NCBI GenBank assembly: GCA_964492335.1
Contig: CAZBJX010000003.1
Span: 26,919 to 90,918 of the forward strand
Reading direction: 5' to 3'
DNA length: 64,000 bases
From: an uncultured Dehalococcoidia bacterium
Lineage (GTDB): Bacteria; Chloroflexota; Dehalococcoidia; UBA2247; RBG-13-53-26
In this document: positions 23,021 through 48,822 of the stretch, one piece after another
How positions within the stretch are numbered: position 1 is the first letter of the stretch
Layout of the letters: every line of letters starts with the position of its first letter
Translations under genes and position numbers: made by a program
The notes under the pieces: generated by a model
What the model saw: the letters and a program-made list of their open reading frames with translations, nothing else
The model's database searches: none
What the model was told of the DNA's origin: nothing

Positions 23021-23022
23021 GG

Positions 23023-24786: not shown

Positions 24787-26001
24787 TTACCCCGTTTGGC
24801 CCCGGGTTATCAAGTGGTGGGCGACCACCAGGAAGGCGGCCAGGGCGAAGGGGATGGGGCTGATGACGTAGTAGTAGGTGGCGGCGGCCAGGTGCGGGGC
24901 CCCCACGGGCGCGCTCTCCAGCAGGCCCACTGCCAGGGTGGCGATGCAGGCCAGGACCACGCCGATGCCCAGCCCGTAGGCGGGGTGGCTGCGGGGAGAG
25001 GTGATGATCCCGATGGACAGCCTGGCGCCGATGACCAGGGCCAGGGCCAGGGCCAGCGCTCCGAGGACGCCGGTGTCGCAGTAGAGCTCCAGGTAGGCGT
25101 TGTGCGGGTGGGAGACCTCCCAGAAATCGGGAGCGTTCCACAGGTCCATCCGGCCATAGTACGCCCGGGCCCAGCAGCCCAGGCCCAGGCCGGTCCACGG
25201 GGCCCCGGCCACCGGCGACGCCGAGAGCAGGTCCACGGTGTCGCGCCACAGCTCCAGCCTGCCGGAGTTGCCATCCTGGCCGGAGATGCTCTGCCCCGAG
25301 ACCAGGCTCAGCAGCGAGTCTTTGGTGATGGCCAGGACGACGATGACGGTGGCGGCTGACACCAGGGCCATCAGCACCCTGGTCCTGCCCCGCGTGCCGA
25401 AGCAGGCCACCCCGAAGAGGATGGCCGCGGCCACGGCCAGCATCATGGCCATGCCGTGGTTGGTGTCCTTGCTGGCGGACTCGGGGCCCCACTGGTTGTA
25501 CACGTGCGGGTTCCCGGTGAGGATGAGCAGCAGGACGATGGCGAGTCCCGCCACCAGCAGCACCACCAGCACCTTCATCCAGAAGGCGGGGCGGCTGTCG
25601 CTGGTGAGGACGCAGCAGGCGATGAGCGTCGCCAGGAGGCACTGGAAGGCCCCCAGGCTCATGGTCCGCTCCGGCGAGACGCAGAGGCCGACGAAGGCCC
25701 CCAGGACCAGCAGGGCCGCGGGTATATCGAAGGGTGTCCGGGAGACCATCGCCTGGCCGCTCAGGTACCTGGCGGGGAAGGGCAGGCAGGCCAGGGCCAG
25801 GGCGGCCCAGGTCAGGGCCGGGCTCCAGTGCATCAGGTAGGAGGCATAGACCAGGATGCCCCAGAGGATGCTCCAGGGCGGGGCGGCCGCCGCCACCGCG
25901 CCGGCGGCCCTGGACAGCCAGGCCGGGGCGGGGTCCGCCCGGCGGGGGGCGGGTGATGGCGGGGGATGGGGCGCACCGGGGGGGCCTGGAGCGGATTGCA
26001 T
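24787..26001 (-). CDS. O-antigen ligase (Wzy_C) family membrane protein
   Basis: 404 aa polytopic; periplasmic-loop motif WEVSHPHNAYLELYCDTGVLGAL matches O-antigen ligase/polymerase domain; Pro-rich N-terminus. Confidence 0.65.
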   Translation of the reverse strand: MQSAPGPPGAPHPPPSPAPRRADPAPAWLSRAAGAVAAAAPPWSILWGILVYASYLMHWSPALTWAALALACLPFPARYLSGQAMVSRTPFDIPAALLVLGAFVGLCVSPERTMSLGAFQCLLATLIACCVLTSDSRPAFWMKVLVVLLVAGLAIVLLLILTGNPHVYNQWGPESASKDTNHGMAMMLAVAAAILFGVACFGTRGRTRVLMALVSAATVIVVLAITKDSLLSLVSGQSISGQDGNSGRLELWRDTVDLLSASPVAGAPWTGLGLGCWARAYYGRMDLWNAPDFWEVSHPHNAYLELYCDTGVLGALALALALVIGARLSIGIITSPRSHPAYGLGIGVVLACIATLAVGLLESAPVGAPHLAAATYYYVISPIPFALAAFLVVAHHLITRGQTG

Positions 26002-26145
26002 GATCGTGATGTACCATCATATTATGGCGCCCGGGCCATTGCAAACGGGCCCGGGCCGCCGGGGCCTTTGCCCGCGGCCGGGGCCGGCCCTATAATGGGT
26101 GCTCGATGCCATGAGTGGAGCAATGTGCAGACCGGGCCAGGGCGC

Positions 26146-27522
26146 ATGATGCCCGGCCGCCTCTTTCGCGGCCTGGCCCAGGCGTACCGCGACCCGCTGC
26201 GCCGCAACTCCACCTACCTCATGGCCACCCACGGGGTGATCGGCCTCTTCGGCTTCTTCTTCTGGAAGATCGCCGATATGCAGTACGGCACCCCCGCCGT
26301 CAGCCAGGCGACTACCCTGGTGTCCGCCGTGCTGCTGCTGCATGTGCTGTCCCGCCTGGGCCTGGACATCGCCCTGATCCGCTTCCTGCCGGGGGAGGAG
26401 GACAAGCCGGGGATGATCAACACAGCGTTCACCATCGTGGGGCTGGGATCCGGGATGCTGGCCGTGGCGGTGATCGCGGGAGTGGGGATATGGGCCCCCC
26501 CGTCCTCCGAGCTCCACGTGGTGGCCGACAACCTGGGCTACTCCTTCCTCTTCGTGGTCTTCACCGTGGCCTCCAGCCTGGCGGGGCTCATGCGGCAGGG
26601 GGTGTTCGTGGCCGGGCGCAGCACCCAGTCTTCGCTGGCCATTGAGGTGGTGGCGGGGGTGAGGCTGCTCCTGCTGCCGGCCCTGATCGCCCTGGGGGCC
26701 GTCGGCATCTTCGTCTCCTGGGGCCTGGCGGGCATGGCCTCCCTGGCGGTAGGCATGGGGCTGGTGGTCATCTTCCAGAGGGACTACCGCCCGGTCCTCA
26801 ATATCCGCCGCGGCGTGGTGGGCCGGATGGTGCGGTTCTCCGCGGGCAACTACGTCGCCGAGACCCTGCGGGAGATGCCCGGCTTCCTGCTGCCCCTCAT
26901 CGTCTCCTTCGTGTTCGCCGGCGCCGTCTCCTCGGGGCAGGCCTCCTCCATGACCGCCTACTTCTACATCTCCTGGACCATAGCCAGCGGGATCATGATG
27001 ATCGCCCATGCCACCGGCTCCTCGCTGCTTGCGGAGGGCGCGCTGGACCCGCGGCGCTTCGGCGCCACCTCGCTGCGGGCCTTGCAGTTCATGTTGCTGC
27101 TGCTGGCGGCGGGCATAGCGGCGGTGTTCCTGCTGGGCCGCCCGCTGCTGTCCTGGTTCGACGGGGGCCGGGGCATGTACGCCGAGAAGGGGCTGTGGCT
27201 GCTGCGGCTCCTGAGCCTCTCGGGGGTGCCCATTGCCATCAACACCATCTACGTCACCTACCAGAGGATGCAGCGCCGGCTGGCGCCGGTGGTCGGGGTG
27301 TACGGGTTTGTGGCCGTCTTCACCATCGGGGTGGGATGGGCCCTGCTGAGGCGGATGGAGCTCACCGGGATCGGCCTGGCCTGGCTGGCCAGCAACAGCG
27401 CGGCGGCCCTGGTGGCCGGCGGCCTGATGACCTCGGGCTGGCTGCGGGCGCGCCGCAAGAGGCGTCAGGGCGGTGAGCGCCCCGGGCCCCCTCAGGGGAG
27501 CGGGGCGGCCAGCACCTCGTAG
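26146..27522 (+). CDS. polysaccharide/oligosaccharide flippase (Wzx-like, MOP superfamily)
   Basis: Start MMPGRLFRGLAQAYRDPLRRNSTYLMATHGVIGLFGFFFW; ~12-14 TM, typical Wzx organisation. Divergent from the ligase-like gene. Confidence 0.65.
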   Translation: MMPGRLFRGLAQAYRDPLRRNSTYLMATHGVIGLFGFFFWKIADMQYGTPAVSQATTLVSAVLLLHVLSRLGLDIALIRFLPGEEDKPGMINTAFTIVGLGSGMLAVAVIAGVGIWAPPSSELHVVADNLGYSFLFVVFTVASSLAGLMRQGVFVAGRSTQSSLAIEVVAGVRLLLLPALIALGAVGIFVSWGLAGMASLAVGMGLVVIFQRDYRPVLNIRRGVVGRMVRFSAGNYVAETLREMPGFLLPLIVSFVFAGAVSSGQASSMTAYFYISWTIASGIMMIAHATGSSLLAEGALDPRRFGATSLRALQFMLLLLAAGIAAVFLLGRPLLSWFDGGRGMYAEKGLWLLRLLSLSGVPIAINTIYVTYQRMQRRLAPVVGVYGFVAVFTIGVGWALLRRMELTGIGLAWLASNSAAALVAGGLMTSGWLRARRKRRQGGERPGPPQGSGAASTS

Positions 27523-27549
27523 ATGCGGACGTCGCGGCCGGGCCTTCGA

Positions 27550-29847: not shown

Positions 29848-29851
29848 GCTG

Positions 29852-30973
29852 TCAGCCCAGGGCCTTACGGTAGGCCGCCTCGGCCTGATCGGCTATGCGG
29901 TCCCAGTCGTAGGCGGCGGCCAGCTCCCGGCATCCCTTCTCCCAGTCGGACCGGCCCAGGGCCTGCCGGACCCTGTCCGCCACGTCCTCCGGCGAGAGGC
30001 TGCAGACGTAGCCGTTGCGCCCGTCGGCGATCAGGTCCTGCGCCGCGTTCTGGGGGTGATTGACGGTGACCACCGGTATGCCGCAGGCGTTGGCCTCCAG
30101 CACCACGTGGCTGAACCCCTCCCGCACGGATGGCTGGACCAGGACCCGGGAGGCCTTCATATGGGAGTAGACCCCGGCGTCGCTGTCCACCGGGCCCAGG
30201 AAGCGGACGCTACCGGAGATGCCCATCTCGCGGGCCAGCAGCTCCAGCCGCTGCCTGTCCGGTCCCTGCCCGATGATGATGCAGCCCGTCTCCTGCCCCC
30301 GCTCCTTCAGGACGGCCGCAGCCTGGAGGAGCAGGGCGACGTTCTTCTCCCGGGCCAGGCGGCCGGCGAAGATGATGCCGTTGGGCTCCGGCCACACGGG
30401 GGCCGCCTCGATGGCGGCGATGTCGATGCCGCAGCCTACGGTGGCCGCCGGCCGGCAACCCAGCTTCTCCAGCCTCTTGCCGGTGTGGGGCGAGATGGCG
30501 ACAGCCCGCTGCGGCAGGCGGGCCGCCAGGCGCTCGACGGCCCTGCCCAGCGCGCCCTTCCTTCCCAGGTACTCGTACCAGTAGCCGTCCCACACCTCGT
30601 GCCAGGTGATTACCAGCCGGGAGCGCCTGGCCAGGGTGGAGAACCAGGCCGCGAAGCAGGGGAAATAGGGGAAATTGGCCACCTCCACCACGTCGAACCT
30701 CTCCTTCATCAGGGGTGGCAGCACCCTGACGGCGAAGTAGAGGGCCCCCTTGATGGAGCGGCGGCCTTCGGTGAAGAGGGGCTGCGGCGGGCAGACGCCC
30801 CGGAAGCGGACCCCTTCCCGGTGCATGACGCTGCCGCCCTCCCAGTACTTCATGCCGAAGATGGTCACCTGGTGGCCCTTCCTGACCAGGCGCCGGCCGA
30901 TCTCCCAGTTGCGCTTCTGCACTCCTCCGGCCACATAGGGGTGGACGACGTCGTATACCAGGGCCAGCTTCAC
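29852..30973 (-). CDS. glycosyltransferase family 4
   Basis: Likely GTG start at VKLALVYDVVHPYVAGGVQ (4-nt overlap with upstream GT2). GT-B fold with C-terminal EGFSHVVLEANACGIPVV motif. Confidence 0.8.
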   Translation of the reverse strand: MKLALVYDVVHPYVAGGVQKRNWEIGRRLVRKGHQVTIFGMKYWEGGSVMHREGVRFRGVCPPQPLFTEGRRSIKGALYFAVRVLPPLMKERFDVVEVANFPYFPCFAAWFSTLARRSRLVITWHEVWDGYWYEYLGRKGALGRAVERLAARLPQRAVAISPHTGKRLEKLGCRPAATVGCGIDIAAIEAAPVWPEPNGIIFAGRLAREKNVALLLQAAAVLKERGQETGCIIIGQGPDRQRLELLAREMGISGSVRFLGPVDSDAGVYSHMKASRVLVQPSVREGFSHVVLEANACGIPVVTVNHPQNAAQDLIADGRNGYVCSLSPEDVADRVRQALGRSDWEKGCRELAAAYDWDRIADQAEAAYRKALG

Positions 30974-31677
30974 CGGACCACCCTCTTCTTGGCGATGTGC
31001 AGCAGGTCGATGAGGCCCACCTTCCAGGCGTTGGACAGCTTGGTCCGGCCGACACGGGCCCGGTACTCTATAGGCACCTCCTTCCAGCGGCACCCGCTGT
31101 AGTAGCAGGCCTCTATCTTGATCTCGTGGGACAGCGGCCACGAGTCTGAGTGCAGCCTGAGCCGGGGCAGGAGGTCCTTCCGGAAGAGCCACATGCCGGA
31201 CTCGGCATCGGCCAGGTCCAGGCCGAAGAGGGCCCGGGTGGCCAGGGACAGCACCCGGTTGCCGGCCCGGTTCAGGGCCGGCATGGCGGCCCGGTCCAGG
31301 GAGGCGAAGCGGTTGGTGGTGAGGAAGTCCAGGCCCTCGCGGTCCAGGGTCTCCAGCAGCGACGGGATGGCCTCCAGGGGATAGGTGGCGTCGGCGTCCG
31401 CGGTCACGATCACGCTTCCGGCCGCGGAGGCGAAGCCCTTCTTCAGGGCGCTGCCGTAGCCGCGCACCGGCTGCGGCACCACGTCCGCCCCGGCCTGCCG
31501 GGCCAGCTGCGCGGTCCGGTCCGTCGAGCCGTTGTCCACCACCAGCACCTGCACCCCGTAGCCCAGAGCCTGTATGGCTTCCCGGGGGACGGCCCTGATG
31601 GTCTGCTCGATGCCCTGCTCCTCGTTGAGGGCGGGGATCACGATGGTCAGGAGTCTGGTGTCCGTCATCCTGTGCAT
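30970..31677 (-). CDS. glycosyltransferase family 2 (DPM1/polyprenyl-phosphate glycosyltransferase-like)
   Basis: LTIVIPALNEEQGIEQT...VVDNGSTDRT...VTADADATYP (DXD). Confidence 0.8.
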   Translation of the reverse strand: MHRMTDTRLLTIVIPALNEEQGIEQTIRAVPREAIQALGYGVQVLVVDNGSTDRTAQLARQAGADVVPQPVRGYGSALKKGFASAAGSVIVTADADATYPLEAIPSLLETLDREGLDFLTTNRFASLDRAAMPALNRAGNRVLSLATRALFGLDLADAESGMWLFRKDLLPRLRLHSDSWPLSHEIKIEACYYSGCRWKEVPIEYRARVGRTKLSNAWKVGLIDLLHIAKKRVVR

Positions 31678-31730
31678 GCGGCCGAAAGCCGGCAATGATG
31701 CCCTATCTTAGCCCGAAAGGCGCCGGCAGG

Positions 31731-31848: not shown

Positions 31849-33513
31849 TCACCCGGCGTGCTTCCCGCGGCGGGCCAGCAGTAAGGCGCCGGCGGCCGCG
31901 GCGAGGAAGGCCCCGCCGGCTGCGCCGGCGCCCACCCAGCCCCAGGGTGTGAGGCGGCTGGGGGCTGCGGCCACCTCGAAGGCCCCGGGCAGGGTGCCGC
32001 TGCCCCCCGGTGCCACAACCGTGGCGTCGCGCCACCTGAGGGCGGCCTCCGGGGCGATGAAGATGCTGGCGGTTATCCGGTTGTGGTCGTGCACCTTGAA
32101 GTCGTCCACCGTGATGCCTTCACCGAAATCCAGGGAGATGGCCTCGGCCAGGTAGCGGCCGATGGCGGTGAACCAGACCCTCTCACCTCTTCGCGCCCGG
32201 GTGAAATCCACCGACAGCAGGACCGGCGGGGCGGGCTCGACCGTGAAGGCGGAGCGCAGGGTAGCACTGCCGCCCTCCGTCTTCAGCGCTATGTCCCTCG
32301 GCCCCGGCCCGGCGGTCTGGCCGACCTCGATGGAGGCCGTCAGCAGGCTGGCGCTTTCGATGACCAGGCCTTCCACCGAGATGCCCTCCCCGAAGCTGAC
32401 CACGGAGGTGGTGTCGAGATTCGTGCCGGCAATGGCTATCGACGCCGAATCCCCCTGGGCGGCCCGGGTGGCGGATATCTGCTGGATGGCAGGCGGCCGC
32501 GACTGCAGGATGGTCCCGTCATCGCCCACGGCGAACACATCGCCCCCCGGGCTGCTCCAGACGCCGTAGAGGTCCTTTCCCGCGCTCCAGGCGCTCCAGG
32601 CGCTCCAGGCCCCGCCGTCCCAGTGGAGGTTGCCGCCGCTGCCCACCGCGTATACGTCGGATGGCGAGCGGCCCCAGACGGCGTTGAGGGACACGGGGGA
32701 GATGCCATCCGGCAGGGGCACGCCGGTCCAGCCCTGGCCATCGTAGCGGGTGATGCAGCCACCGCCCACCGCAATCACGTTTGAGGCTGAGCCTGCCCAG
32801 ACACCGGTCAGGCCGCAATCGTCGATGCCGTGCTTTGTGGTCCAGGCATCACCGTCATAGTGCCGGACGTAGCCTGCCAGCGACGGGCACGGGGACGCTG
32901 CCGCCACGGGGCACACCGGGTGCCGGTCGGTGCCGGCGGCGTAGACGTCCGTGGAGGTGGTGCCGCAGACCGATTTCAGGTCGATGCTTGTATCGCTGAC
33001 CATGGCGGCCCAGGCGGTGCCGTTGCAGTGCAGGATGCTGCCATTGTCCCCCACGGCGAAGACGTCCGAGGAAGTGGCCCCCCAAACCCCGTTCAGGGTC
33101 TCGGCTGTGCCCGATGTCATCGCGGTCCAGGCGGCGCCGTCGTAGTGCAGGATGGTCCCGCCGGTGCCGACGGCGTAAACGTTGTCCGCGGAAGTTCCCC
33201 AGACGCCATTGAGTGTTCTCGTGGTGCCCGACGCCATCCCGGTCCAGGCGGCGCCGTCGTAGTGCAGGATGGTGCCGCCTGAGCCGACGGCGAACAGGTC
33301 GGACGACGAGGTGCCCCACAGGGCCAGCAGCCGGGCTGCAGTGCCGCTGGCCATGGGCCGCCAGGCGGCCAGGCTGTCGCCGGCCCTCACGGCCGGGGGA
33401 GAGGCGGCCAGGGCCAGGCAGGCCGCCAGGACCAGGCAGGCCGCCAGGGACAGGAGCAGCGTCCCCGGGACGGGGGCCGGTCTCCGGCGCTTCATCAGGT
33501 CCAATGTCCTCAT
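31849..33513 (-). CDS. secreted 7-bladed beta-propeller repeat protein (Ycf48/BNR-like repeats) with C-terminal W-rich motif + TM anchor
   Basis: Signal peptide MRTLDLMKRRRPAPVPGTLLLSLAACLVLAACLALAA. About 7 repeats of L.GVWG.S.SDV.AVG..GTILHYDG.AWT.M.SGT. C-terminal Ig-like region then PWGWVGAGAAGGAFLAAAAGALLLARRGKHAG. Confidence 0.7.
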   Translation of the reverse strand: MRTLDLMKRRRPAPVPGTLLLSLAACLVLAACLALAASPPAVRAGDSLAAWRPMASGTAARLLALWGTSSSDLFAVGSGGTILHYDGAAWTGMASGTTRTLNGVWGTSADNVYAVGTGGTILHYDGAAWTAMTSGTAETLNGVWGATSSDVFAVGDNGSILHCNGTAWAAMVSDTSIDLKSVCGTTSTDVYAAGTDRHPVCPVAAASPCPSLAGYVRHYDGDAWTTKHGIDDCGLTGVWAGSASNVIAVGGGCITRYDGQGWTGVPLPDGISPVSLNAVWGRSPSDVYAVGSGGNLHWDGGAWSAWSAWSAGKDLYGVWSSPGGDVFAVGDDGTILQSRPPAIQQISATRAAQGDSASIAIAGTNLDTTSVVSFGEGISVEGLVIESASLLTASIEVGQTAGPGPRDIALKTEGGSATLRSAFTVEPAPPVLLSVDFTRARRGERVWFTAIGRYLAEAISLDFGEGITVDDFKVHDHNRITASIFIAPEAALRWRDATVVAPGGSGTLPGAFEVAAAPSRLTPWGWVGAGAAGGAFLAAAAGALLLARRGKHAG

Positions 33514-38031: not shown

Positions 38032-38273
38032 TCCCTGTGCCTGCGCCGGCGGATACTGTCTGCCAGCAACAGCGCGGCGCCCGCCAGGAGGAAGTAGAAG
38101 GCGCAGAAGGCCAGGCGGTCCGACAGGCCGCGCAGTGGCCAGGTCACGGCGCTGAGAAGGAGAAGCCCGAAGGCGGCCAGGATGGGGCCGCGAGGCTCCC
38201 AGCGGTGCCGCACCGCCAGGGCGCAGTACAGGGCTATCAGGGCCGGCGGGACCAGGTCAAAGACGTAATTCAT
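38028..38273 (-). CDS. small membrane protein (2 TM)
   Basis: 81 aa, two hydrophobic helices; 4-nt overlaps with both flanking YfhO-like genes suggest translational coupling. Confidence 0.45.
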   Translation of the reverse strand: MNYVFDLVPPALIALYCALAVRHRWEPRGPILAAFGLLLLSAVTWPLRGLSDRLAFCAFYFLLAGAALLLADSIRRRRHRE

Positions 38274-38280
38274 GGCAGGT

Positions 38281-40608: not shown

Positions 40609-40635
40609 CTTCGCTTTGCGGCCGCCGTGGCCGGA

Positions 40636-41421
40636 CTATTCAGCGCCCGGCCGGGGCCTCTGCTTGACGACTCTGGCCGGGGACCCCACGGCAATGGTGA
40701 AGGGGGGGATGTCCCCGGTGACCACGGACCCGGCCCCTACCACCGCCGCCTTGCCCACGGTCACGCCGGGCAGGACCACCGTGTTCAGGCTGATGAAGGA
40801 GTACTCCCCGATGGACACCGGTTCCTCCACCACGTACTGCATGCGCAGCGGCGATGCGGCGGACATGCTCAGCAGCGGCGCATCGGGGTTGGCCGGGTCG
40901 GTGTGGTAGTTGCTGCCGCTGTAGATCCTGCTCCCGGCGGCCACCGCGCAGTAGTCGCCCAGGCTCACGCCGCCCCGCCCGGAGAGGACGCAGCAACTGG
41001 CCACGTGGACGTATTTCCCGATGCGGACCGATCCGTGCCCCTCCGCGCCGCCGAGTATGGTGACGTAGGTGTCTATGTGGGAGCCGTCGCCGATCTCCAC
41101 GTTCTCGGGCTGCCAGATGTTGACCCCCAGGTCCAGGAACACGTTGCGGCCCATGCTCTTGAGCCTGCCCTTGTGGTAGGCCCCCCGCAGGAAGAAGCCT
41201 ATGGCCCCGCGCGTGTAGCTCCTGGCGAACGTCTCGAAGAGCGAAGACAGCACGGGTATTCTGGAGATGGCCAGGATGATGGCCTGGCAGACCGCCATGC
41301 CGGCCTTGACCAGCCAGAAGATGAGCCTCTCATGAGGGCGCAGGTCCGGTGGCGTGTCATCCGAGTACGCCCCCTTGATGCCCCTGGCTATGTAGTCGTC
41401 GTCGTAGAGAAGGAAGCTCAT
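40636..41421 (-). CDS. hexapeptide-repeat (left-handed beta-helix) acetyltransferase, sugar N/O-acetyltransferase-like
   Basis: 261 aa; repeated [LIV]G..xx[LIV] hexads (VEIGDGSHIDTYVTILGG...IGKYVHVASCCVLSG...LGDYCAVAAGSRIY). Confidence 0.75.
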   Translation of the reverse strand: MSFLLYDDDYIARGIKGAYSDDTPPDLRPHERLIFWLVKAGMAVCQAIILAISRIPVLSSLFETFARSYTRGAIGFFLRGAYHKGRLKSMGRNVFLDLGVNIWQPENVEIGDGSHIDTYVTILGGAEGHGSVRIGKYVHVASCCVLSGRGGVSLGDYCAVAAGSRIYSGSNYHTDPANPDAPLLSMSAASPLRMQYVVEEPVSIGEYSFISLNTVVLPGVTVGKAAVVGAGSVVTGDIPPFTIAVGSPARVVKQRPRPGAE

Positions 41422-41448
41422 GGCGGGGACGGTCCCTGGTACCCGGAT

Positions 41449-42174
41449 CTACTGGAGTCCCAGTCTGAGTATGATGGCTCTCCTGGCATAGGTCAATCCT
41501 GCGTTGAGGTACCTGGTCTTGGTCATCCCGTCATGCCGCGGGTAGTAGGCGAAGGGGACCTCCTGGAGCCGCAGCCCGCGCTTGAAGCCCTTGTACAGCA
41601 GGGCGAAGGAGTAGTCGCCGTAGCCGGTGAAGACGGTCTCCGACTCCAGCCCCTGCAGGGAACGGCGCCTGGCGGCGAAGAAGCCCCCCGTGAGGTCCTT
41701 CACTGGTATTCCCAGGACGGTCCTGACGAAGAGGTTCAGGGCCCGGCTGCCCAGGCTGAGGTGCGGGGAGGAGACCATCTTGCCCCCGTTGACGTATCGG
41801 GAGGCGATGGCGATGTCGGCGGCGCCGCTCTCCACCACGGAGGCCAGTTGCGGGATGACGTCGCAGTCGTGGCTGAAGTCGGCGTCCATCACCACTATGG
41901 TGTCCCCGTCCGACTCCAGGATGCCCCGCCGCACGGCGCTGCCCAGACCCCTGGCATCGGTGCGGACCACCGTCTTCAGGGAGGGGTACTTGCCGGTGAG
42001 GGACAGGCACATGTCCCCCGTGCCGTCGGGGCTGTTGTCGTCGATCACCACCACCTGGGTGGCATTCCTCAGCCGGCGCTCCGAATACATCCTCTGGTAG
42101 ATCCGGTCTATGAGAAGGGCGATGTTGCCCGCCTCGTTGTAGGTGGGGATGACGATGGACAGTCTGCTGCTCAC
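41449..42174 (-). CDS. glycosyltransferase family 2, polyprenyl-phosphate glycosyltransferase (DPM1/CsbB/GtrB-like)
   Basis: LSIVIPTYNEAGNI...VVVIDDNSPDGTG...VVMDADFSHD, the DPM1-type layout. Expected partner of GtrA and YfhO/GT-C enzymes. Confidence 0.8.
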   Translation of the reverse strand: MSSRLSIVIPTYNEAGNIALLIDRIYQRMYSERRLRNATQVVVIDDNSPDGTGDMCLSLTGKYPSLKTVVRTDARGLGSAVRRGILESDGDTIVVMDADFSHDCDVIPQLASVVESGAADIAIASRYVNGGKMVSSPHLSLGSRALNLFVRTVLGIPVKDLTGGFFAARRRSLQGLESETVFTGYGDYSFALLYKGFKRGLRLQEVPFAYYPRHDGMTKTRYLNAGLTYARRAIILRLGLQ

Positions 42175-43313
42175 TCTCGACGTCCTCCTGTGTTCTTAGT
42201 TCCCCGCATGGAGGCTACTGCGCCCGCTATCCTGTCCACTTCCTCCCGGCTGACCATGGGGCCGCTGGGGAGGTTCAGCCCCCGCCGGCTGAGGTCCTCG
42301 GCCACCGGGAAGCGCGTGTTGCCGTCGCCCTCGTAGGGCGGCATGAGGTGCAGCGGGTAGAACAGCGGCCGGGTCTCTATACCCCGGTCCTTGAGGGCGC
42401 TGATCACCCGGTCCCTGGTCATGCCGAAGGCGTCCTCCAGAAGGATGGAGTACATCCAGTAGACGCTCCCGGCCCAGGGCATCCGGGGCGGCCGGGTGAT
42501 GAGCCCCTGGTCCGCCAGGGGGGCCAGCGCTTCATCGTACCATTTCGCCAGCTGGCGCCGCCGGGCCACCAGCATGTCCAGCCGGTCCACCTGGGCCGCT
42601 CCCACCGCCGCCTGCAGGTTGGTCATCCGGTAGTTGAAGCCCACAACGTCGTACCAGTATCTCCTGCCGGGATCCATGCCATGGTCCCTCAGGACCCGCA
42701 TCCTGCGGTCCAGATCGTCGTCATCGGTCAGGCACATGCCGCCTTCCCCGGTGCTGATGATCTTGTTGCCGAAGAAGGAGAAGCAGTTGACCTGCCCGAA
42801 GGAGCCGACCTTCCGGCCGCGATAGAGCGCCCCGTGGGCCTCGGCCGCATCCTCTATGACATGCAGGCCGTGCCGGCGGGCGATGTCCCCGATGGCGTCC
42901 ATGTCGCAGGGGTGGCCATAGAGGTGCACCGGCATGACGGCCCTGGTCCGGGGGGTGATGCTCTCCTCCAGCCTGGCGGGGTCCATGCACCAGTATTGCG
43001 GGTCGGAGTCCACCAGGACGGGCCGGGCATTGCAGTAGGCCACGGTGTTGGCCGTGGCGATGAAGGTCAGCGCCGGGACCAGCACCTCGTGGCCCTCCCC
43101 GATGCCCAGGGCCTTCAGGGCCAGGTGCAGGGCCACCGTGCCGTTGGCCGTGGCCACCCCGTGGCGCGTGCCGCAGTACCGGGCGAACTTCTGCTCGAAC
43201 TCCAGGATGAACCTGCCCTGGGAGCTGATCCAGCCGCTCCTGATGGCCTCGACGGCGTTGGCCAGCTCCTCTTCGCCCAGGAAGGGCTCCGCCACAGGGA
43301 TGACGTCTCTCAC
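42171..43313 (-). CDS. DegT/DnrJ/EryC1/StrS family PLP-dependent sugar aminotransferase (perosamine-synthetase-like)
   Basis: 380 aa; GTVALHLAL, SFFGNKIISTGEGG (PLP-Lys region), DHGMD. Confidence 0.82.
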   Translation of the reverse strand: MRDVIPVAEPFLGEEELANAVEAIRSGWISSQGRFILEFEQKFARYCGTRHGVATANGTVALHLALKALGIGEGHEVLVPALTFIATANTVAYCNARPVLVDSDPQYWCMDPARLEESITPRTRAVMPVHLYGHPCDMDAIGDIARRHGLHVIEDAAEAHGALYRGRKVGSFGQVNCFSFFGNKIISTGEGGMCLTDDDDLDRRMRVLRDHGMDPGRRYWYDVVGFNYRMTNLQAAVGAAQVDRLDMLVARRRQLAKWYDEALAPLADQGLITRPPRMPWAGSVYWMYSILLEDAFGMTRDRVISALKDRGIETRPLFYPLHLMPPYEGDGNTRFPVAEDLSRRGLNLPSGPMVSREEVDRIAGAVASMRGTKNTGGRRE

Positions 43314-43317
43314 GCTG

Positions 43318-44364
43318 CTACACTCTCAGGGACCGGGTCATTATGCGGGCCTCGCTGGGATAGCTGGGGGCATCCCAGGGGAAGGCTTCGCCCCGCAGGC
43401 AGCGCTGCCAGCGGGACAGGTCCGCCTCCACCATGATCTCGACCAGCCTGTCGAACTTGACCGTGGGCTGCCACCCCAGCGTCCGGCGGGCCTTGGAGCA
43501 GTCGCCCTCCAGGTGGTCTACGTCCAGGGGCCTCAGGAACCGCTCGTCCACCTCCACGTATTGCTGCCAGTCCAGCCCCACCACGTCGAAGGCCTTGCGG
43601 GCAAACTCCTGGACCGAGTGGGTCTCGCCGGTGCTGATGACGTAGTCATCGGGCCTGTCCTGCTGCAGCATAAGCCACATGGACTCCACGTACTCGGGCG
43701 CATAGCCCCAGTCTCGCTTGGCCTCCAGGTTGCCCAGGGAGAGCTTGTCCCTCAGGCCCAGCTTGATCTTGGCAGCCGCATTGGATATCTTGCGGGTGAC
43801 GAACTCGATGCCGCGCAGCGGCGACTCGTGGTTGAAGAGGATGCCGTTGCAGGCGAACATCCCGTAGCCCTCCCGGTATATGGTGGTCAGCCAGTATCCG
43901 TAGAGCTTGGCCGCCGCGTAAGGGCTGGAGGGCCGGAACGGCGTGAGCTCACTCTGCGGGGCCGAGTTGGACTTGCCGTAGAGCTCGCTGGTGGACGCCT
44001 GGTAGAAGCGGATGCTGCGGTCGGCCTCCTTGATGGACTCCAGCACCCTGGTGACGCCGAGCCCGGTCACCTCGCCGGCCCCGACCGGCTGGTCGAAGGA
44101 AGCGCCCACGAAGCTCTGGGCGGCCAGGTGATAGACCTCCTGCGGCTGCGAGATGTTGAGGGCCCCTATAATGGAGGAGGAATCCACCAGGTCGGCGGGG
44201 ATGAGGGTGACCTGGTCGAATACGTCCAGGTACTGCAGCCTCCAGAAGTTGGGCGTCGAAAGCCGGCGGTAGGTGCCGAACACCCTGTATCCCTTCTGCA
44301 GGAGCAGATGGGCCAGGTACGCGCCGTCCTGGCCGGTAATCCCGGTAATCAAAGCATTCTTCAC
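43318..44364 (-). CDS. gmd: GDP-mannose 4,6-dehydratase
   Basis: [26 protein letters not shown]; SDR catalytic YAAAK; ASTSELYG. Confidence 0.88.
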
Positions 44365-44847
44365 TCAACGCTCCTTGGGTGCATCGTTGCGGGCGATCGC
44401 CGGGGAGTGCCTCCATACCCAGAAATTGCTGACCAGGAAATTCAGCGGCGTGGCCACGGCGATGGCGCACACTGCCGAGAGGAGGTAGTACAGGCCGAAC
44501 ACCTCCGTCAGCAGCGTCAGCACCGCCAGGTTCACCGCCAGCGCCAGGGAAGAGGAGAGCAGGTACTTGGACCACTCCCAGGCCAGGGTCGCCGGGGTGT
44601 TCTGCTTGGGCCGGTCGCCGAAGGTCCACACCCGGTTCAGGGCGAAGTTGCTGGTGGCCGATGTGACCTGCGCTATCAGGGCCGAGGCAACGTAGTAGAC
44701 GCCGATCACGTCGGTGAAGAGCTTGAGCGTCCCCAGGCCGACGAAGACACCACTCCCGCCGACCAGGCAGAACTTCACCAGCCGCATCAGGTCGCGGCTC
44801 CGGAGATCCCTGGCCTGCGGGTAGCGCAACTCAGCCACAGTCTTCAT
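44365..44847 (-). CDS. gtrA: GtrA-family membrane protein (polyprenyl-P-sugar flippase accessory)
   Basis: 160 aa, 4 TM; FCLVGGSGVFVGLGTL...NFALNRVWTF motif of the GtrA family. Confidence 0.75.
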   Translation of the reverse strand: MKTVAELRYPQARDLRSRDLMRLVKFCLVGGSGVFVGLGTLKLFTDVIGVYYVASALIAQVTSATSNFALNRVWTFGDRPKQNTPATLAWEWSKYLLSSSLALAVNLAVLTLLTEVFGLYYLLSAVCAIAVATPLNFLVSNFWVWRHSPAIARNDAPKER

Positions 44848-44894
44848 GCCAAAACCGGCAAGTCGCCATCAGCGGGAGGCAACTCGCCCGTTAC

Positions 44895-44922
44895 TATATA
44901 GAGACGCTGCATCCGCCACAAT
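44895..44922 (-). promoter_or_regulatory. putative sigma70-type promoter of the gtrA-gmd-aminotransferase-GT2 operon
   Basis: Minus strand: TTGTGG-17 nt-TATAGT (44895-44900); an AT-rich island in GC-rich DNA, ~45 nt upstream of the gtrA start. Confidence 0.4.
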
Positions 44923-44942
44923 GTTCCCGGGATGCCCGGTCA

Positions 44943-45030
44943 CCGGTGCCCGCGAGCGCGGGCCCGGGCCATTGAGGCGGACGCCGTCGATGTCCAGCGA
45001 CCGCCGGTGCCCCGCGAGCGCGGGCCCGGG
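44943..45030. promoter_or_regulatory. two copies of a 26-27-bp palindrome-containing repeat upstream of the gtrA promoter
   Basis: CCGGTGCCCGCGAGCGCGGGCCCGGG at 44943-44968 and 45004-45030; internal dyad GCCCGCG-AG-CGCGGGC. Confidence 0.45.
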
Positions 45031-45041
45031 GGCGGGGGAGG

Positions 45042-46022
45042 TCACGGGCGGGCGTATCCCCGGGGGTGCTCCCTGGTCCAGGCCCAGGCGCTGGCCATGA
45101 TGTCCTCCAGGCCGGGGCGCCGGGGCGACCATCCCAGCTGCGCCCTGGCCCGCGCGGAGCTGGCCACCAGGACTGCCGGGTCGCCGGCCCGCCTGCCGGC
45201 CGGTGTGACCGCTATGCGGGCCCCGGTGATCTTCCTGGCCGCCTCTATGACCTCCAGCACGGAGTAGCCCTCGCCGTTGCCCAGGTTGAAGGCCCCGGCC
45301 CCTATGGCGTCGATCTTCTCCAGGGCCAGTATGTGCGCCGCGGCGATGTCGGCCACGTGGACGTAGTCCCGGACGCAGCTCCCGTCCGGGGTGGGGTAGT
45401 CGGTGCCGAACACCGAGACCGGCCGGCCGCTCATGGCCGCCTTGAAGATGTTGGGGACCAGGTGCGTCTCGGGCACGTGGTCCTCGCCCAGGCGGTCGGT
45501 GGCCCCGGCGGCGTTGAAATAGCGGAAGGACACGTGCTTGAGGCCGTAGGCCGTGCCGTACCAGCCCAGGACCTGCTCGAACTGGAGCTTGGAGAGGCCG
45601 TAGGCGTTGATGGGCTCCCGGGGGTGGTCCTCTTCCATGGGGGCGCTGCGGGGCTCGCCGTAGACCGCCGCTGTGGAGGAGAAGACCATGCGGCGCACGT
45701 TGTGCCGCCGCATGACGTTCAGGAGGTTCAGGCCGCCGACGATGTTGGTGGCGAAGTACCGCGCGGGGTCCGTGGTGGAGTACTCCACCACCGTCTCGCC
45801 GGCCATGTGCATCACGGCGTCGGGGGGCATTTCCGCGAAGGCGGCATCGAGGGCGGCGGCGTCGCAGATGTCCGCCTGGAGGAAGCGGGCGGCGCCGGGG
45901 ACCGCTTCGCGGTGCCCCTGCTGCAGGTTGTCGACTACCAGGACCCGGTGCCCCGCGGAGAGCAGGCCTTCGGTGACCACGCTGCCGACATAACCGGCGC
46001 CCCCGGTGACCAGGACATTCAC
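45042..46022 (-). CDS. galE: UDP-glucose 4-epimerase
   Basis: MNVLVTGGAGYVGS; SSTAAVYG; catalytic YGLSK. Confidence 0.85.
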   Translation of the reverse strand: MNVLVTGGAGYVGSVVTEGLLSAGHRVLVVDNLQQGHREAVPGAARFLQADICDAAALDAAFAEMPPDAVMHMAGETVVEYSTTDPARYFATNIVGGLNLLNVMRRHNVRRMVFSSTAAVYGEPRSAPMEEDHPREPINAYGLSKLQFEQVLGWYGTAYGLKHVSFRYFNAAGATDRLGEDHVPETHLVPNIFKAAMSGRPVSVFGTDYPTPDGSCVRDYVHVADIAAAHILALEKIDAIGAGAFNLGNGEGYSVLEVIEAARKITGARIAVTPAGRRAGDPAVLVASSARARAQLGWSPRRPGLEDIMASAWAWTREHPRGYARP

Positions 46023-46627
46023 GGCTCTCTGCCCCCCTGCCCGGCCCGCCGCCCGGGGCCGAAGAGCGAGGTCTCCACCAGGGAGCAGATGATGTGCCCG
46101 GCCAGCATATGGGCTTCCTGAATGCGGGGCGTGTCCGTCGACGGGATGGAGAGGACGTGATGGGCCAGGTCCCGGAGGGTGCCCCCGGCGCCGGTGAAGG
46201 CCACGGTGACTGCCCCCAGTTGCCGCGCCGCGTCGATGCCGCGGACCACGTTGGAGGACTCCCCGCTGGTGCTCAGGCCGACCACCACGTCGCCCCTGGC
46301 CGCCAGGCCCCGCACCTGCCGGGCGAACACCTCTTCGTAGCCGAAGTCGTTGGCGATGGCGGTCAGGGACGCCGTGCTGGCCGTCAGGGAGATGGCCGGC
46401 AGGGGCTCCCGGAACAGGGTGAACTTGCCGGCGAGCTCGCCGGCCAGGTGGTCGGCGTCGGCGGCGCTGCCGCCGTTGCCGAAGAGGAGCACCTGGTTGC
46501 CCCGCCTCAGGGCGCGCACCATGGCGTCGGCGATATCCACAATGATGCCGGCCTGCTCCTCCAGGGCGGCGCAGAGCGCGACGCTCTCCCGCACCTGGCT
46601 GGCGACGACCTTCTTCTTGCCCCTCAT
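46019..46627 (-). CDS. gmhA: sedoheptulose-7-phosphate isomerase (SIS domain)
   Basis: 202 aa; LFGNGGSAADADHLAGEL, GLSTSGES. Confidence 0.8.
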   Translation of the reverse strand: MRGKKKVVASQVRESVALCAALEEQAGIIVDIADAMVRALRRGNQVLLFGNGGSAADADHLAGELAGKFTLFREPLPAISLTASTASLTAIANDFGYEEVFARQVRGLAARGDVVVGLSTSGESSNVVRGIDAARQLGAVTVAFTGAGGTLRDLAHHVLSIPSTDTPRIQEAHMLAGHIICSLVETSLFGPGRRAGQGGREP

Positions 46628-46631
46628 GTGC

Positions 46632-47663
46632 CTAGTCCCCGCTCACTTCCCAGCTCTGCATGCCGCGCAGGTCGAAGGAGAAGCCCACGATCTTCCCCCC
46701 GGCCGCCTCCAGCCTCTCCGCCACGATGTGCCACTTGTCGAACTCGCACAGGAAGAGGAGGTAGCCCCCTCCGCCCGCTCCCAGGAGCTTGCCGCCGATG
46801 GCCCCGTTGTTCCTGGCCACCTCGTACAGCTCGTCGATGGCGGGGTCGCTGATCTTGGAGGAGAGCCTCTTCTTGCAGACCCAGGCCTGGTGCATGAGGG
46901 TGCCGAACTCGTGCAGGTGCCCCAGCAGGAGGGCGTTCTTCATGCTGTAGGCCAGGGCCTTCGTCTCCTGGAGGGCCTGGACCACCGTCTCCTTCTTGCG
47001 GACGTAGGAGTCCACCTGGTCGTCCAGGATGCCGGCGGAAAGCCTGGTCCCGCCGGTGTAGCACAGCATGAGCCGGTACTCCAGCTCGCTGATGGTATCC
47101 CAGTTGATGCGCAGCGGGTTGACGATGGTGGTCCTGCCCAGGAACTCGATGAAGTTGAAGCCCCCGAAGGTGGCCGCGTACTGGTCCTGCCTCCCCCCCT
47201 TGATCCTGGCCTCTTCGCGCTCGATGCGATAAGCCAGCTCGGCGATGTCGTAGGAGGTCAGCGGCATCTTCAGCATCTGCTTGAAGGCGCCCACAATGGC
47301 CACCACCAGGGCGCTGGAGGTGCCCAGACCGGAGCCCGGGGGGGCATCGGTGTGCAGGAAGAGGTCGTAGCCGCTGGTCAGGCCCATGCCCCGTATGGCC
47401 GCCTTCACCAGGTCCAGCTGCCCGTCGTACGCCAGGCCGGTGCTGACGTCGTAGCGGGTGACGATGTCGTAGTCCAGCGAGGTGACGCTGATGGAGCCGT
47501 CCTGGCGCGCCTTGAGGGTGCAGTAGGCGTACTTGCTGATGGTGGTGCTCAGGACCGCGCCGCCCTGCTCCTCGGGATAGGGGGGGACGTCGGTGCCGCC
47601 GCCGCCGAAGCTGATGCGCAGGGGCGCGCGGCTGCGTATGGTGGTGGCCTTCATCTCATGCAT
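46632..47663 (-). CDS. hddA: D-glycero-alpha-D-manno-heptose 7-phosphate kinase (GHMP kinase)
   Basis: 343 aa; APLRISFGGGGTD and PPGSGLGTSSALVVA motifs. Confidence 0.78.
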   Translation of the reverse strand: MHEMKATTIRSRAPLRISFGGGGTDVPPYPEEQGGAVLSTTISKYAYCTLKARQDGSISVTSLDYDIVTRYDVSTGLAYDGQLDLVKAAIRGMGLTSGYDLFLHTDAPPGSGLGTSSALVVAIVGAFKQMLKMPLTSYDIAELAYRIEREEARIKGGRQDQYAATFGGFNFIEFLGRTTIVNPLRINWDTISELEYRLMLCYTGGTRLSAGILDDQVDSYVRKKETVVQALQETKALAYSMKNALLLGHLHEFGTLMHQAWVCKKRLSSKISDPAIDELYEVARNNGAIGGKLLGAGGGGYLLFLCEFDKWHIVAERLEAAGGKIVGFSFDLRGMQSWEVSGD

Positions 47664-48216
47664 CTTTGAGCAGCCATTCTACCGCCTCGAAGAGGCCAAC
47701 GGCAACATGGTCCGCCTCGGCGCCGGGGCCGGAAGCGGGGTGGCCCTCCCGGTCGCGGGGCAGCTCCGCGGCGTCCGGCCTCAGCCAGACGGTGCGGCAC
47801 CCGGCGGCCCTGCCCGCCTGCACGTCCTTGATATCGTCCCCGATCATGTAGGAGCGGCCCAGGTCGATCCCCATGTCCCGGGCGGCCTGCAGCAGCAGGG
47901 CCGGTTTGGGCTTCCGGCAGGCGCACCCCTCGTCGGGGTGGTGGGGGCACAGGTAGATGGCATCGATACGGGCCTTCTCCCGGGCCAGCTCCGCCTCCAT
48001 CTTCGCGTGGATGCGCGACAGCGTCTCCAGGGTGAAGTAGCCCCGCGCCAGGCCCGACTGGTTGGTGATCACCACCACCTTGAAGCCGCGCTCGTTCAGC
48101 GCCCTGACGGCGGCGGGTACGCCGGGGAGGATTGCGAAGTCCCGGGGGTCGCGGCAGTAGTGGACGTCCGGAGCAATGGTGCCGTCCCGGTCCAGGAATG
48201 CGGCTCGGTGCGACAT
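47656..48216 (-). CDS. gmhB: D,D-heptose 1,7-bisphosphate phosphatase (HAD-IIIA)
   Basis: AAFLDRDGTI (DxD), VITNQSG, Zn-binding CxH...CxC (CPHHPDEGCACRKP), IGDDIKD. Confidence 0.8.
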   Translation of the reverse strand: MSHRAAFLDRDGTIAPDVHYCRDPRDFAILPGVPAAVRALNERGFKVVVITNQSGLARGYFTLETLSRIHAKMEAELAREKARIDAIYLCPHHPDEGCACRKPKPALLLQAARDMGIDLGRSYMIGDDIKDVQAGRAAGCRTVWLRPDAAELPRDREGHPASGPGAEADHVAVGLFEAVEWLLKDA

Positions 48217-48231
48217 GAGGACCTGCGGCGC

Positions 48232-48822
48232 CTACTCCCGCAGGCAGGAAGTGATGACGTGGCCCAGCATGAGGTGGACGTCCTCCACTTTGTCGATGTT
48301 GGCGTCCGGGACCATGATGCAGAAGTCGACCAGGTCCTTCAGGCGGCCCCCGTCCAGCCCGGTCAGGCCCACGGTGACGGCCCCGCAGGCCCGGGCCGCC
48401 ATGACGCCGTTGAGGACATTGGAGGACAGGCCGCTCCCGCTGATGCCGATGACCACGTCTCCGGGCTCGACCTGGTCCTGGACCTGCTGCGCGAAGATGC
48501 TGTCGTAGGCGGTGTCGTTGGCCCAGGCGGAGATGAGGGACATGTTGTCGGTCAGGGCCGTGGCCCGCAGCCGCGGTCTGCCGTTGCTGCCGGCGCCCTT
48601 GGCCAGGTCGCAGGCCAGGTGGGACGCAGTGGCGGCGCTGCCTCCGTTGCCGAAGAGAAAGACCCTTCTGCGGTGTGAGCGGGCCTCCCGCAGCAGGCGG
48701 ACGACCCGTTCGATCTGGTCCACGGGCAGGTTGCTCAGGGTGGCCCGCATGCCGGAGAAGTAGGCCGATATGGCCTGGCTGGTGGAGTCCAACGTCACCC
48801 GGGCCATCACTTCATACTTCAT
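48232..48822 (-). CDS. gmhA: second sedoheptulose-7-phosphate isomerase paralog (SIS domain)
   Basis: 196 aa; LFGNGGSAATASHLACDL, GISGSGLS. Confidence 0.75.
   Translation of the reverse strand: MKYEVMARVTLDSTSQAISAYFSGMRATLSNLPVDQIERVVRLLREARSHRRRVFLFGNGGSAATASHLACDLAKGAGSNGRPRLRATALTDNMSLISAWANDTAYDSIFAQQVQDQVEPGDVVIGISGSGLSSNVLNGVMAARACGAVTVGLTGLDGGRLKDLVDFCIMVPDANIDKVEDVHLMLGHVITSCLRE

Follow-up and report, generated by a model that had tools for sequence, protein, structure and literature searches.

What do uncultured Dehalococcoidia build on their cell surface, and onto what are the sugars transferred? To our knowledge, nothing is known experimentally about how Dehalococcoidia or other uncultured Chloroflexi build their envelope, and at least some Chloroflexi/Dehalococcoidia do without peptidoglycan and depend on a surface layer made of protein. 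The question is raised by a gene cluster of about 24 kb (positions 24787 to 48822) in a 64-kb stretch of DNA with about 68% GC, called the window here, from an uncultured Dehalococcoidia bacterium (contig CAZBJX010000003.1). A sequence-only reading of the window had described this cluster as an island for lipid-carrier-dependent glycosylation outside the cytoplasm, whose glycan is transferred onto two large secreted proteins encoded in its middle. Our analysis of gene families, GT-C membrane transferase folds, synteny, a gene fusion and the operon structure upheld the lipid-carrier system itself. Family 2 glycosyltransferases (GT2s) very probably load polyprenyl phosphate, the sugars are presented outside, and GT-C enzymes transfer them there. 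As for the acceptor, a carrier-linked oligo- or polysaccharide made by a conserved Dehalococcoidia envelope glycan locus is the most likely one, a reading that we regard as having about an even chance of being right.

The enzymes that would load the carrier are two soluble GT2s, both of 241 amino acids (aa) and both encoded on the minus strand. GT2a (30970-31695), a DPM1/AglJ/ArnC-like protein, matched the Pfam family Glycos_transf_2 with an E value of 6e-24 (85 bits), and GT2b (41449-42174), a DPM1/ArnC-like protein, did so with 4.3e-28 (99 bits). The top solved relative of both was the Pyrococcus dolichyl phosphate (Dol-P)-mannose synthase 5mlz (3.5e-15 for GT2a and 2e-33 for GT2b), followed by ArnC and GtrB, in agreement with their earlier description as DPM1-like. 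The nearest NCBIfam models were Dol-P-hexose transferase, AglJ, PpgS and ArnC, with scores short of the equivalog cutoffs; for GT2a, Dol-P-hexose transferase (2.6e-37) and AglJ were the top matches. No transmembrane (TM) helix was predicted in either GT2, so the C-terminal TM helices of GtrB are missing. The small membrane protein of the GtrA/DPMS-TM type (44365-44847, minus strand) was confirmed with 94.9 bits against a cutoff of 26.1 for PF04138, and its stop directly abuts the start of gmd (gap of 0). GtrA may flip polyprenyl phosphate-linked sugars and/or, because both GT2s lack a TM helix, act as their membrane partner.

Three minus-strand genes encode the putative transferases acting on the other side of the membrane, GT-C869 (35422-38031), GT-C775 (38281-40608) and GT-C765 (27550-29847). 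The first two had been called YfhO paralogs and the third ArnT/PMT-like. The Pfam searches that confirmed the GT2s and GtrA gave only marginal or sub-cutoff scores for the GT-Cs with YfhO and PMT_2. GT-C869 just passed YfhO (29.7 bits versus a cutoff of 28.5), with only residues 750 to 820, near its C terminus, aligning to positions 759 to 830 of the 835-position profile. GT-C775, a protein with about 12 TM helices, stayed below this cutoff (22.7 bits, 3.8e-5); it is a distant paralogue of GT-C869, with about 26% identity across the TM domain. The N-terminal TM domains of both matched PTPS_related below cutoff (6e-6 for GT-C775). Sequence searches of the PDB found no solved relative for the GT-C869 profile, GT-C765 (sequence and profile), GT-C775 or the Wzy_C protein described below. 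GT-C869 and GT-C765 were modeled with AlphaFold2 (AF2), each from an alignment of 29 homologues, with a predicted local distance difference test score (pLDDT) of 77 and 82, respectively, and the models were compared with solved structures using Foldseek. According to these models, both proteins clearly have a GT-C fold, with AftD, Emb, STT3, PglB, ArnT and PMT among the structures matched. The best match of GT-C869 was AftD (8e-15, TM-score 0.51), followed by EmbB/C, STT3, DPY19, AftA, PglB and ArnT. Its C-terminal beta-sandwich ectodomain, followed by a terminal TM helix, resembled the carbohydrate-binding modules (CBMs) CBM11, CBM30 and CBM4. In place of "YfhO paralogues", we prefer to describe GT-C869 and GT-C775 as GT-C proteins distantly related to YfhO, PTPS_related and AftD.

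GT-C765 carries a C-terminal globular domain, and with this domain included its closest solved folds were STT3 and AglB. The modeled ectodomain resembled carbohydrate-binding super-sandwich domains of glycoside hydrolases and phosphorylases. The window copy reached 25.0 bits for PMT_2 (cutoff, 26.1) and 16.3 bits for STT3 (cutoff, 24.5), and was also below cutoff for GtrII. Within its family, PMT_2 was matched by 28 of the 29 members (E ≤ 0.1; best, 1.2e-9) and STT3 by one (E value of 0.007), and two homologues are named "glycosyltransferase family 39 protein" by NCBI. The description as ArnT/PMT-like is thus a fair one for the family and its GT-C fold, with the window copy itself below cutoff and the acceptor type not given by the PMT_2 domain. 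Just after the first TM helix (TM1), G41-H42-D43 is invariant in the GT-C869 family and D-M-G-x-D (73-77) in the GT-C765 family; both acidic motifs would lie in the first extracytoplasmic loop. The R-P-P-L after TM1 that is invariant in GT-C765 is an ArnT/PMT-type signature of enzymes using monophosphate-linked sugars. Directly upstream of GT-C869 lies a gene for an 81-aa protein with three predicted TM helices (38028-38273, minus strand); the end of this gene and the start of GT-C869 share 4 nt. In five related loci (L003, L004, L005, L006 and L019, so designated in our set), homologues of 70 to 83 aa occupy the same position. This protein may be a GT-C subunit or a small flippase. Its only family match was a weak one to DUF7134.

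A gene fusion linked one of the transferases to its likely donor-making enzyme. In L019 (10001-13336), the 1111-aa protein P0009 is a GT-C869 orthologue fused at its C terminus to GT2a. The GT2 domain follows the terminal TM helix, a topology that fits a cytoplasmic location of this domain. Because of this Rosetta-stone fusion, GT2a is the probable supplier of GT-C869. The fusion gives indirect support for donor-transferase coupling; it comes from one relative and may still be an assembly or frameshift artefact.

The combination of GT2, GtrA and GT-C recalls the three-component systems GtrA/GtrB/GtrC of Shigella and CsbB(GtlA)/GtcA/YfhO(GtlB) of Bacillus/Listeria (PMC8035078, PMC5836110). As in those systems, a GT2 for loading polyprenyl phosphate, a GtrA-family protein and a GT-C acting outside are encoded in one cluster. 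Unlike GtrB and CsbB, the GT2s of the window have no C-terminal TM helices. Where those systems have one GT-C, the window has three, drawn from two very divergent families, and the Pfam YfhO match is marginal and confined to the C terminus. The locus adds Wzx-like, Wzy_C and GT4 proteins and full sugar pathways, and teichoic acids or O-antigen are not expected as acceptors in Chloroflexi. GT-C869 is similar to mycobacterial AftD in that a GT-C membrane domain is joined to CBM-like ectodomains, whereas no sequence similarity is detectable, AftD is 1300 to 1400 aa long and no genes of the arabinose (decaprenyl-phospho-arabinose, DPA) pathway are present here. AftD extends a polysaccharide.

We then considered the cluster as a genetic unit. 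All open reading frames (ORFs) of the sequence-only reading were present where it had placed them, and all showed GC contents by codon position of GC1>GC2<<GC3, with GC3 of about 0.9, the signature of real genes. Eighteen glycan-related and surface-protein genes run on the minus strand from 48822 to 27550. Neighboring genes are spaced by -8 to +27 nt, apart from wider gaps of 194 nt between galE and gtrA and 153 nt between the surface-protein gene Sec1 and GT2a, and an overlap of 223 nt between the longest GT4 ORF and GT2a. Such tight same-strand packing of 18 genes is far from chance. In the 153-nt gap, a consensus scan found no promoter-like or terminator-like site. The locus is completed by a plus-strand multi-TM gene (25966-27522) and the minus-strand Wzy_C gene (24787-26001), with outward-pointing promoter-like sites, found by consensus scan, in the intergenic region between them. 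Housekeeping genes flank the locus, namely CitMHS, dprA and topA on one side and an MBL-fold hydrolase gene, tRNA genes, tuf and nusG on the other.

The cluster proteins were compared by tblastn with 63 fetched loci, together with annotated gene lists. A single-sequence search of genome contigs with the 869-aa protein found no relative, and a profile search with the GT-C869 family found 10 loci. The relatives of GT-C869 and GT-C765 were all labeled as Dehalococcoidia, Chloroflexi or Chloroflexia metagenome-assembled genomes; exact copies of window proteins were also found on an NCBI contig of such a genome and in Logan assemblies, with runs SRR15734601 and SRR15734604 among the sources. More than 20 Chloroflexi loci shared the core order GT-C869, an optional epimerase, GT2a, GT4, optional GFO, DegT, methyltransferase (MT) or GT4 genes, one or two copies of GT-C765, the Wzx-like gene in reverse orientation, Wzy_C and CitMHS, with DprA further on. 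This core lies at the same chromosomal site, marked by CitMHS and DprA, even in relatives with 42 to 45% identity and 55% GC (L036 and L041). Because of this shared site in distant relatives and the housekeeping flanks, the cluster is not an island as had been proposed. Horizontal acquisition as an island was rejected on these grounds, with only the 38- to 45-kb part having a slightly lower GC content. Judging from these comparisons, the cluster is best described as a vertically inherited, conserved envelope locus with a variable sugar-specific middle. Since the site is conserved across a wide span of this lineage and the sugar genes vary in a serotype-like manner, the locus may well encode the principal pathway for surface glycans in the group.

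The genes for the embedded surface proteins did not share this conservation. Where the junction was visible, a Sec1-like gene followed GT-C869 in 4 of 15 loci (between GT-C869 and GT2a in the window, L003, L005 and L006) and a beta-helix gene in 2, and GT2a or an epimerase directly followed GT-C869, with no surface-protein gene, in the remaining 11. The synteny comparison thus left these genes outside the conserved system. In L018 (GCA_040961035.1), the closest sequenced relative, the region upstream of GT2a (1-8067) encodes Sec1-like propeller proteins of 709, 710 and 776 aa. A protein of 259 aa that shares their C-terminal anchor and a leucine-rich-repeat protein of 386 aa are also encoded there, so that the region forms a surface-protein hotspot beside the glycosylation core.

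Three genes of the locus would provide a carrier-linked glycan. The GT4 gene (29852-31192, minus strand) encodes a cytoplasmic glycosyltransferase matching Glycos_transf_1 (4e-34) and Glyco_transf_4 (1e-20), in line with the earlier description. Its homologues are 371 to 385 aa long and align from residue 74 of the longest ORF; the true start is probably near 30973, which would give a product of about 373 aa. The plus-strand ORF 25966-27522 (518 aa) had been taken for a Wzx flippase. The window copy matched no family, and five of seven orthologues matched Polysacc_synt (best, 3.2e-10) and two matched MurJ. Through these orthologues it was accepted as a candidate MOP/Wzx-like flippase gene. It is convergent with GT-C765 in every locus, and its true start is probably at about 26146, with a promoter-like site at 26068-26096. 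The Wzy_C-domain membrane protein (24787-26001, minus strand), described before as O-antigen-ligase-like, was well above cutoff for PF04932 (3.5e-17, 63 bits versus 31.7), and its gene is kept at the end of the locus beside CitMHS in relatives. Polymerase, ligase and O-oligosaccharyltransferase are all possible functions of this protein, among which sequence cannot discriminate.

The remaining minus-strand genes point to the sugars that may be used. A GDP-heptose route had been proposed from two gmhA genes, hddA and gmhB. The GmhB-type heptose-1,7-bisphosphate phosphatase of the HAD family (47656-48216) passed its NCBIfam equivalog cutoff (NF006506, 178.2 bits versus 178). The other three had these functions as their best matches, below cutoff: an HddA-like heptose-7-phosphate kinase (46632-47663; GHMP_kinases_N and _C; HddA 7e-90, 301.8 bits versus 600) and two SIS-domain isomerases, a phosphoheptose isomerase-like gmhA copy 1 (46019-46627; SIS_2 1.1e-24; gmhA 5.9e-49, 166 bits versus 209) and a sedoheptulose-7-phosphate isomerase-like copy 2 (48232-48822; SIS_2 1.5e-20; gmhA 122.5 bits versus the cutoff of 209). 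The heptose-1-phosphate nucleotidyltransferase gene hddC (NTP_transferase) was not found in the 64-kb window, which leaves the four-enzyme GDP-heptose set (GmhA, HddA, GmhB and HddC) incomplete, and no nucleoside diphosphate-sugar pyrophosphorylase was found there either. The UDP-glucose 4-epimerase gene galE (45042-46022) proposed earlier was clearly above cutoff (TIGR01179, 378.9 bits versus 262.3). For the proposed perosamine-like route, the matches were mixed. The GDP-mannose 4,6-dehydratase gene gmd (43318-44364) just passed its cutoff (TIGR01472, 415.3 bits versus 415), and the DegT-family sugar aminotransferase (42171-43313) had a strong match to PF01041 (443 bits), with no specific equivalog cutoff passed and its substrate undefined; from its position beside gmd, we infer that it acts as a GDP-perosamine synthase. 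The hexapeptide-repeat acyltransferase (40636-41421; Hexapep 4e-14) had NeuD/PglB/VioB and WbbJ-type acetyltransferases as its top matches, all below cutoff. Its match to sugar N-/O-acetyltransferases was confined to the C-terminal half, and it has an unusual N-terminal TM helix (residues 34 to 52).

Several of these genes appear to form a second module. A second block comprising the GT-C775 paralogues, the 81-aa protein and the hexapeptide/GT2b/DegT genes was described only in the nearest clade (L003, L005, L006 and L019), and GT-C775 co-occurred with the perosamine module in the same four loci. In the window, the block at 38000-45000 has a GC content of 0.64 to 0.66, compared with 0.69 to 0.70 in the rest of the locus (3 to 5% lower). 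This suggests that the GT-C775/acyltransferase/GT2b/DegT/gmd/GtrA block is a later-acquired or faster-evolving module. Relatives differ in the tailoring genes that separate the GT-C775 paralogues from GT2b or the acyltransferase; L003 has an insert at 3887-6920 with an ATP-grasp enzyme and an unknown 581-aa protein, and L019 has two CoA-transferase subunits at 943-2263. Such inserts suggest a lineage-specific acyl or amino acid decoration of the amino sugar. In its gene order (gtrA, gmd, degT, GT2b, acyltransferase, GT-C775), the module follows the logic of the Arn pathway, which consists of the ArnB aminotransferase, the N-formyltransferase domain of ArnA, the GT2 ArnC, the flippase ArnE/F and the GT-C ArnT. 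In both, an amino sugar would be made, N-acylated, loaded on polyprenyl phosphate, flipped and transferred by a GT-C, and ArnC was among the top solved matches of both GT2s. The chemistry here is gmd/GDP-mannose derived and not UDP-glucuronate derived, a Chloroflexi monoderm has no lipid A, a GtrA-type flippase stands in the place of ArnE/F, and the GT-C belongs to another family.

In the mechanism that we propose, cytoplasmic enzymes would make an amino sugar of the GDP-perosamine type, which may be N-acylated, along with a derivative of D-glycero-D-manno-heptose and the 4-epimer of a UDP-hexose. The two TM-less GT2s would load single sugars onto polyprenyl phosphate, and the GtrA protein would flip the loaded carriers or anchor the GT2s. 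At the outer face of the membrane, the three GT-Cs would transfer these sugars, adding branches or extensions to a glycan. GT2a would work with GT-C869 and probably with GT-C765, and we infer that GT2b works with GT-C775, this second pair forming the Arn-like module with gmd, DegT, the acyltransferase and GtrA. GT4, with a priming enzyme whose gene would lie elsewhere, would assemble the carrier-linked glycan itself, which the Wzx-like protein would flip and the Wzy_C protein would process; its final anchor may be a surface protein, a lipid or the wall. The modules are all of known kinds, namely three-component glycosylation, Arn-like amino sugar transfer and Wzx/Wzy.

The two embedded proteins were examined as alternative acceptors. 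Both genes are on the minus strand in the middle of the locus. The sequence-only reading had called the products secreted; each has an N-terminal signal peptide and is membrane anchored by a C-terminal TM helix. Sec1 (31849-33513; 554 aa with its ATG at 33513) has a signal peptide with possible lipoboxes, about seven propeller-type repeats of about 40 aa with the pattern LNGVWG..DVYAVG..GTILHYDG..W, two Ig-like domains, and a C-terminal TM segment followed by basic residues (Qn_am_d_aIII, 5e-5). Its family has more than 4000 homologues, and the propeller, TIG and Qn_am_d_aIII architecture is common in Dehalococcoidia. The beta-helix protein (33534-35429) consists of a signal peptide, a NosD-type right-handed beta-helix, a PKD domain and a C-terminal TM segment (NosD 5e-28, Beta_helix 2e-19, PKD_4 5e-12; TM segments at residues 1 to 19 and 607 to 625). 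The gene begins within the last 8 nt of GT-C869, and Sec1 starts 20 nt after it. A Ser/Thr-rich disordered region was absent from both proteins, with a maximum Ser plus Thr content per 30 aa of 33% in Sec1 and 40% in the beta-helix/PKD protein. These maxima fell inside folded repeats or the PKD domain, and the linkers before the anchors are only 10 to 15 aa long. N-X-S/T sequons numbered only 2 and 1 in the two proteins.

Common to both proteins and their orthologues is a C-terminal motif, P-x-W-[I/V/G]-W followed by a hydrophobic helix of about 20 aa and an R/K-rich tail (31849-31970 and 33534-33650 in the window; also in L003, L005, L006 and L018). In the orthologues, it is often preceded by a short linker rich in P/T/S/G. 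The motif looks like a sorting or anchoring signal. No NCBIfam model for a known sorting signal (PEP-CTERM, PGF-CTERM, LPXTG or similar) matched it. Three sampled members of the Sec1 family from elsewhere stand alone, away from glycosylation genes. In Dehalococcoides, the putative S-layer protein carries the annotation of a BNR/Asp-box repeat protein (PMC6646388), which is only a lead to a possible homologue of Sec1. In our main reading, the two surface proteins are a lineage-specific insertion that is co-expressed with the machinery and is not required by the system. They may be extra acceptors or glycan binders.

Which acceptor fits best? For the Wzx-like, Wzy_C and GT4 proteins, together with the carbohydrate-binding-like ectodomains of the GT-Cs, a glycan is at least as plausible an acceptor as a protein, and a carrier-assembled surface glycan is slightly favored over the embedded proteins. 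Several points weigh against it. The polymer part of this reading draws on the Wzx-like, Wzy_C and GT4 genes only, and Wzy_C proteins include protein O-oligosaccharyltransferases. Neither the window nor four related loci with annotation yielded a chain-length regulator or an LCP-type ligase, and the activated heptose is not defined because hddC is missing. In the nearest clade, 5 of 6 loci (the window, L003, L005, L006 and L018, with L019 as the exception) keep one to several Sec1-like genes adjoining GT2a, and the beta-helix gene is translationally coupled to GT-C869; both hint at a functional link to surface proteins. According to a Pfam scan of the 56 window genes, the 64-kb window has no priming phosphoglycosyltransferase (PGT), and neither a primer nor a chain-length regulator was found in the gene lists of L003, L004, L018 and L019 or among the ORFs of L041. 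The primer gene is missing from many O-antigen clusters and may lie elsewhere in the genome; its absence was for this reason rejected as a weak argument against a polymer. Direct O-glycosylation of the embedded proteins, and perhaps of other surface or S-layer proteins, by the GT-Cs from polyprenyl phosphate-linked sugars was the model of the sequence-only reading. Its mechanism would match that of the streptococcal GtrB/PgtC2 and PgfS/PgfM1 systems. There is a precedent in Streptococcus mutans Pgf and Streptococcus pyogenes GtrB-PgtC2, where a YfhO-family GT-C acts on proteins; in the pgf operon of S. mutans, the substrate genes cnm, cnaB and cbpA lie inside the operon (PMC12041528). The window shares with these systems a GT2, one or more GT-Cs resembling the YfhO type, an epimerase, embedded surface-protein genes and a monoderm host. 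The 8-nt overlap with GT-C869 and the 20-nt distance of Sec1, the position of Sec1-like genes between the fusion-linked partners in four loci, the several such genes with a leucine-rich-repeat gene in L018, and the P/T/S/G-rich linkers of some orthologues also speak for it. We nevertheless consider this model unlikely, since the core is conserved without surface-protein genes in most related loci, the Ser/Thr-rich disordered acceptor regions of the streptococcal systems are missing, sequons are few and the sampled Sec1-family genes from elsewhere do not stand beside glycosylation genes. The beta-helix (CASH/NosD) and propeller domains typically bind or process carbohydrate themselves; the soluble domains of the GT-Cs resemble carbohydrate binders. 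The NCBIfam scores were also far below cutoff (PgfM2, 20.9 versus 1500 bits; PgfS, 38.7 and 44.3 versus 500). The readings weighed here are not fully exclusive. The polymer could be put on a surface protein by an O-oligosaccharyltransferase of the Wzy_C type, as happens in Gram-positive S-layer glycosylation.

Two further schemes were weighed against the carrier-assembled glycan. One is a lipoglycan like the mycobacterial or corynebacterial phosphatidylinositol mannosides, lipomannan (LM) and lipoarabinomannan (LAM), in which GT4 would glycosylate a membrane lipid inside, the glycolipid would be flipped and the three GT-Cs would extend it outside from polyprenyl phosphate-linked sugars. A GT4, a Ppm1-like GT2 and several GT-Cs follow the general logic of LM/LAM synthesis. 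Among solved structures, GT-C869 was closest to AftD, and Emb and AftA also ranked high; the related locus L004 has a GT87 (PimE-like) gene, and a PGT is not required. We hold this scheme to be improbable, as Wzx-like and Wzy_C genes are foreign to LM/LAM-type pathways, no lipid-anchor-specific enzyme was identified and the structural ranking of the GT-C is silent on acceptor chemistry. The other, en bloc transfer of an archaeal type, is the least likely of all. Here an AglJ-like GT2a would prime polyprenyl monophosphate, GT4 would extend it, the Wzx-like protein would flip it and GT-C765 would be a divergent STT3/AglB-like oligosaccharyltransferase (OST), with GT-C869 and GT-C775 adding terminal sugars like AglS of Haloferax and the propeller and beta-helix surface (S-layer-like) proteins as targets. 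The window resembles the Agl system of Haloferax volcanii (AglJ, AglG/I/E, AglB, AglD, AglR and AglS; PMC3871713) in its AglJ-like GT2, its soluble glycosyltransferase, its MOP-like flippase and a GT-C with STT3/AglB as closest solved folds, and a further GT-C could add a terminal sugar as AglS does. No PGT would be needed because GT2a adds the first hexose, and none was found in any locus examined; the best NCBIfam matches of GT2a fit as well. The GT-C765 family has the motif YPExLGWWI(E)G, with an invariant WW, just after the last TM helix, and hhalign aligned this WW segment to the WWDYG region of STT3 with a P value of 2e-4 and a probability of only 45%, placing WWDYG over YPExLG. The fold ranking and the WW had prompted the idea that GT-C765 is a true OST; this idea was given less weight because the sequence matches of the family are mainly to PMT_2 and WWDYG is not conserved. 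The ArnT/PMT-type R-P-P-L and the GT2a::GT-C869 fusion, which points to GT2a making a monosaccharide donor, also argue against en bloc transfer, as do the score below the Pfam STT3 cutoff, the bacterial host and the lack of sequon enrichment.

The locus is of interest as it comes from a phylum with an essentially unknown envelope biochemistry and combines extreme GT-C divergence and a natural GT-C::GT2 fusion with a recurring but nonessential association with anchored surface proteins. Through the fusion, the coupling of donor and transferase could become accessible to experiment. Should the adjacent anchored proteins prove to be the acceptors, YfhO/PMT-type protein glycosylation would extend to a new phylum.

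Other features were noted elsewhere in the window. As the sequence-only reading had said, it holds no lipopolysaccharide machinery; the Pfam scan found no lipopolysaccharide or outer membrane genes among the 56 window genes. Two tRNA genes lie between dprA and CitMHS (22724-23109, minus strand) and three upstream of tuf (50646-50903, plus strand), and a bacterial class A RNase P RNA gene was found at 10309-10676 (minus strand, 300.8 bits). The 494-aa ORF 6763-8247 (minus strand) has a HisG (ATP phosphoribosyltransferase) domain at residues 298 to 447 only; its N-terminal region of about 290 aa has no assignment, the start is perhaps over-called, and the ORF adjoins a HisS/HisZ-like gene. Two ClpP paralogues are encoded in tandem, with overlapping genes, directly after the trigger factor gene (15023-16362, plus strand).

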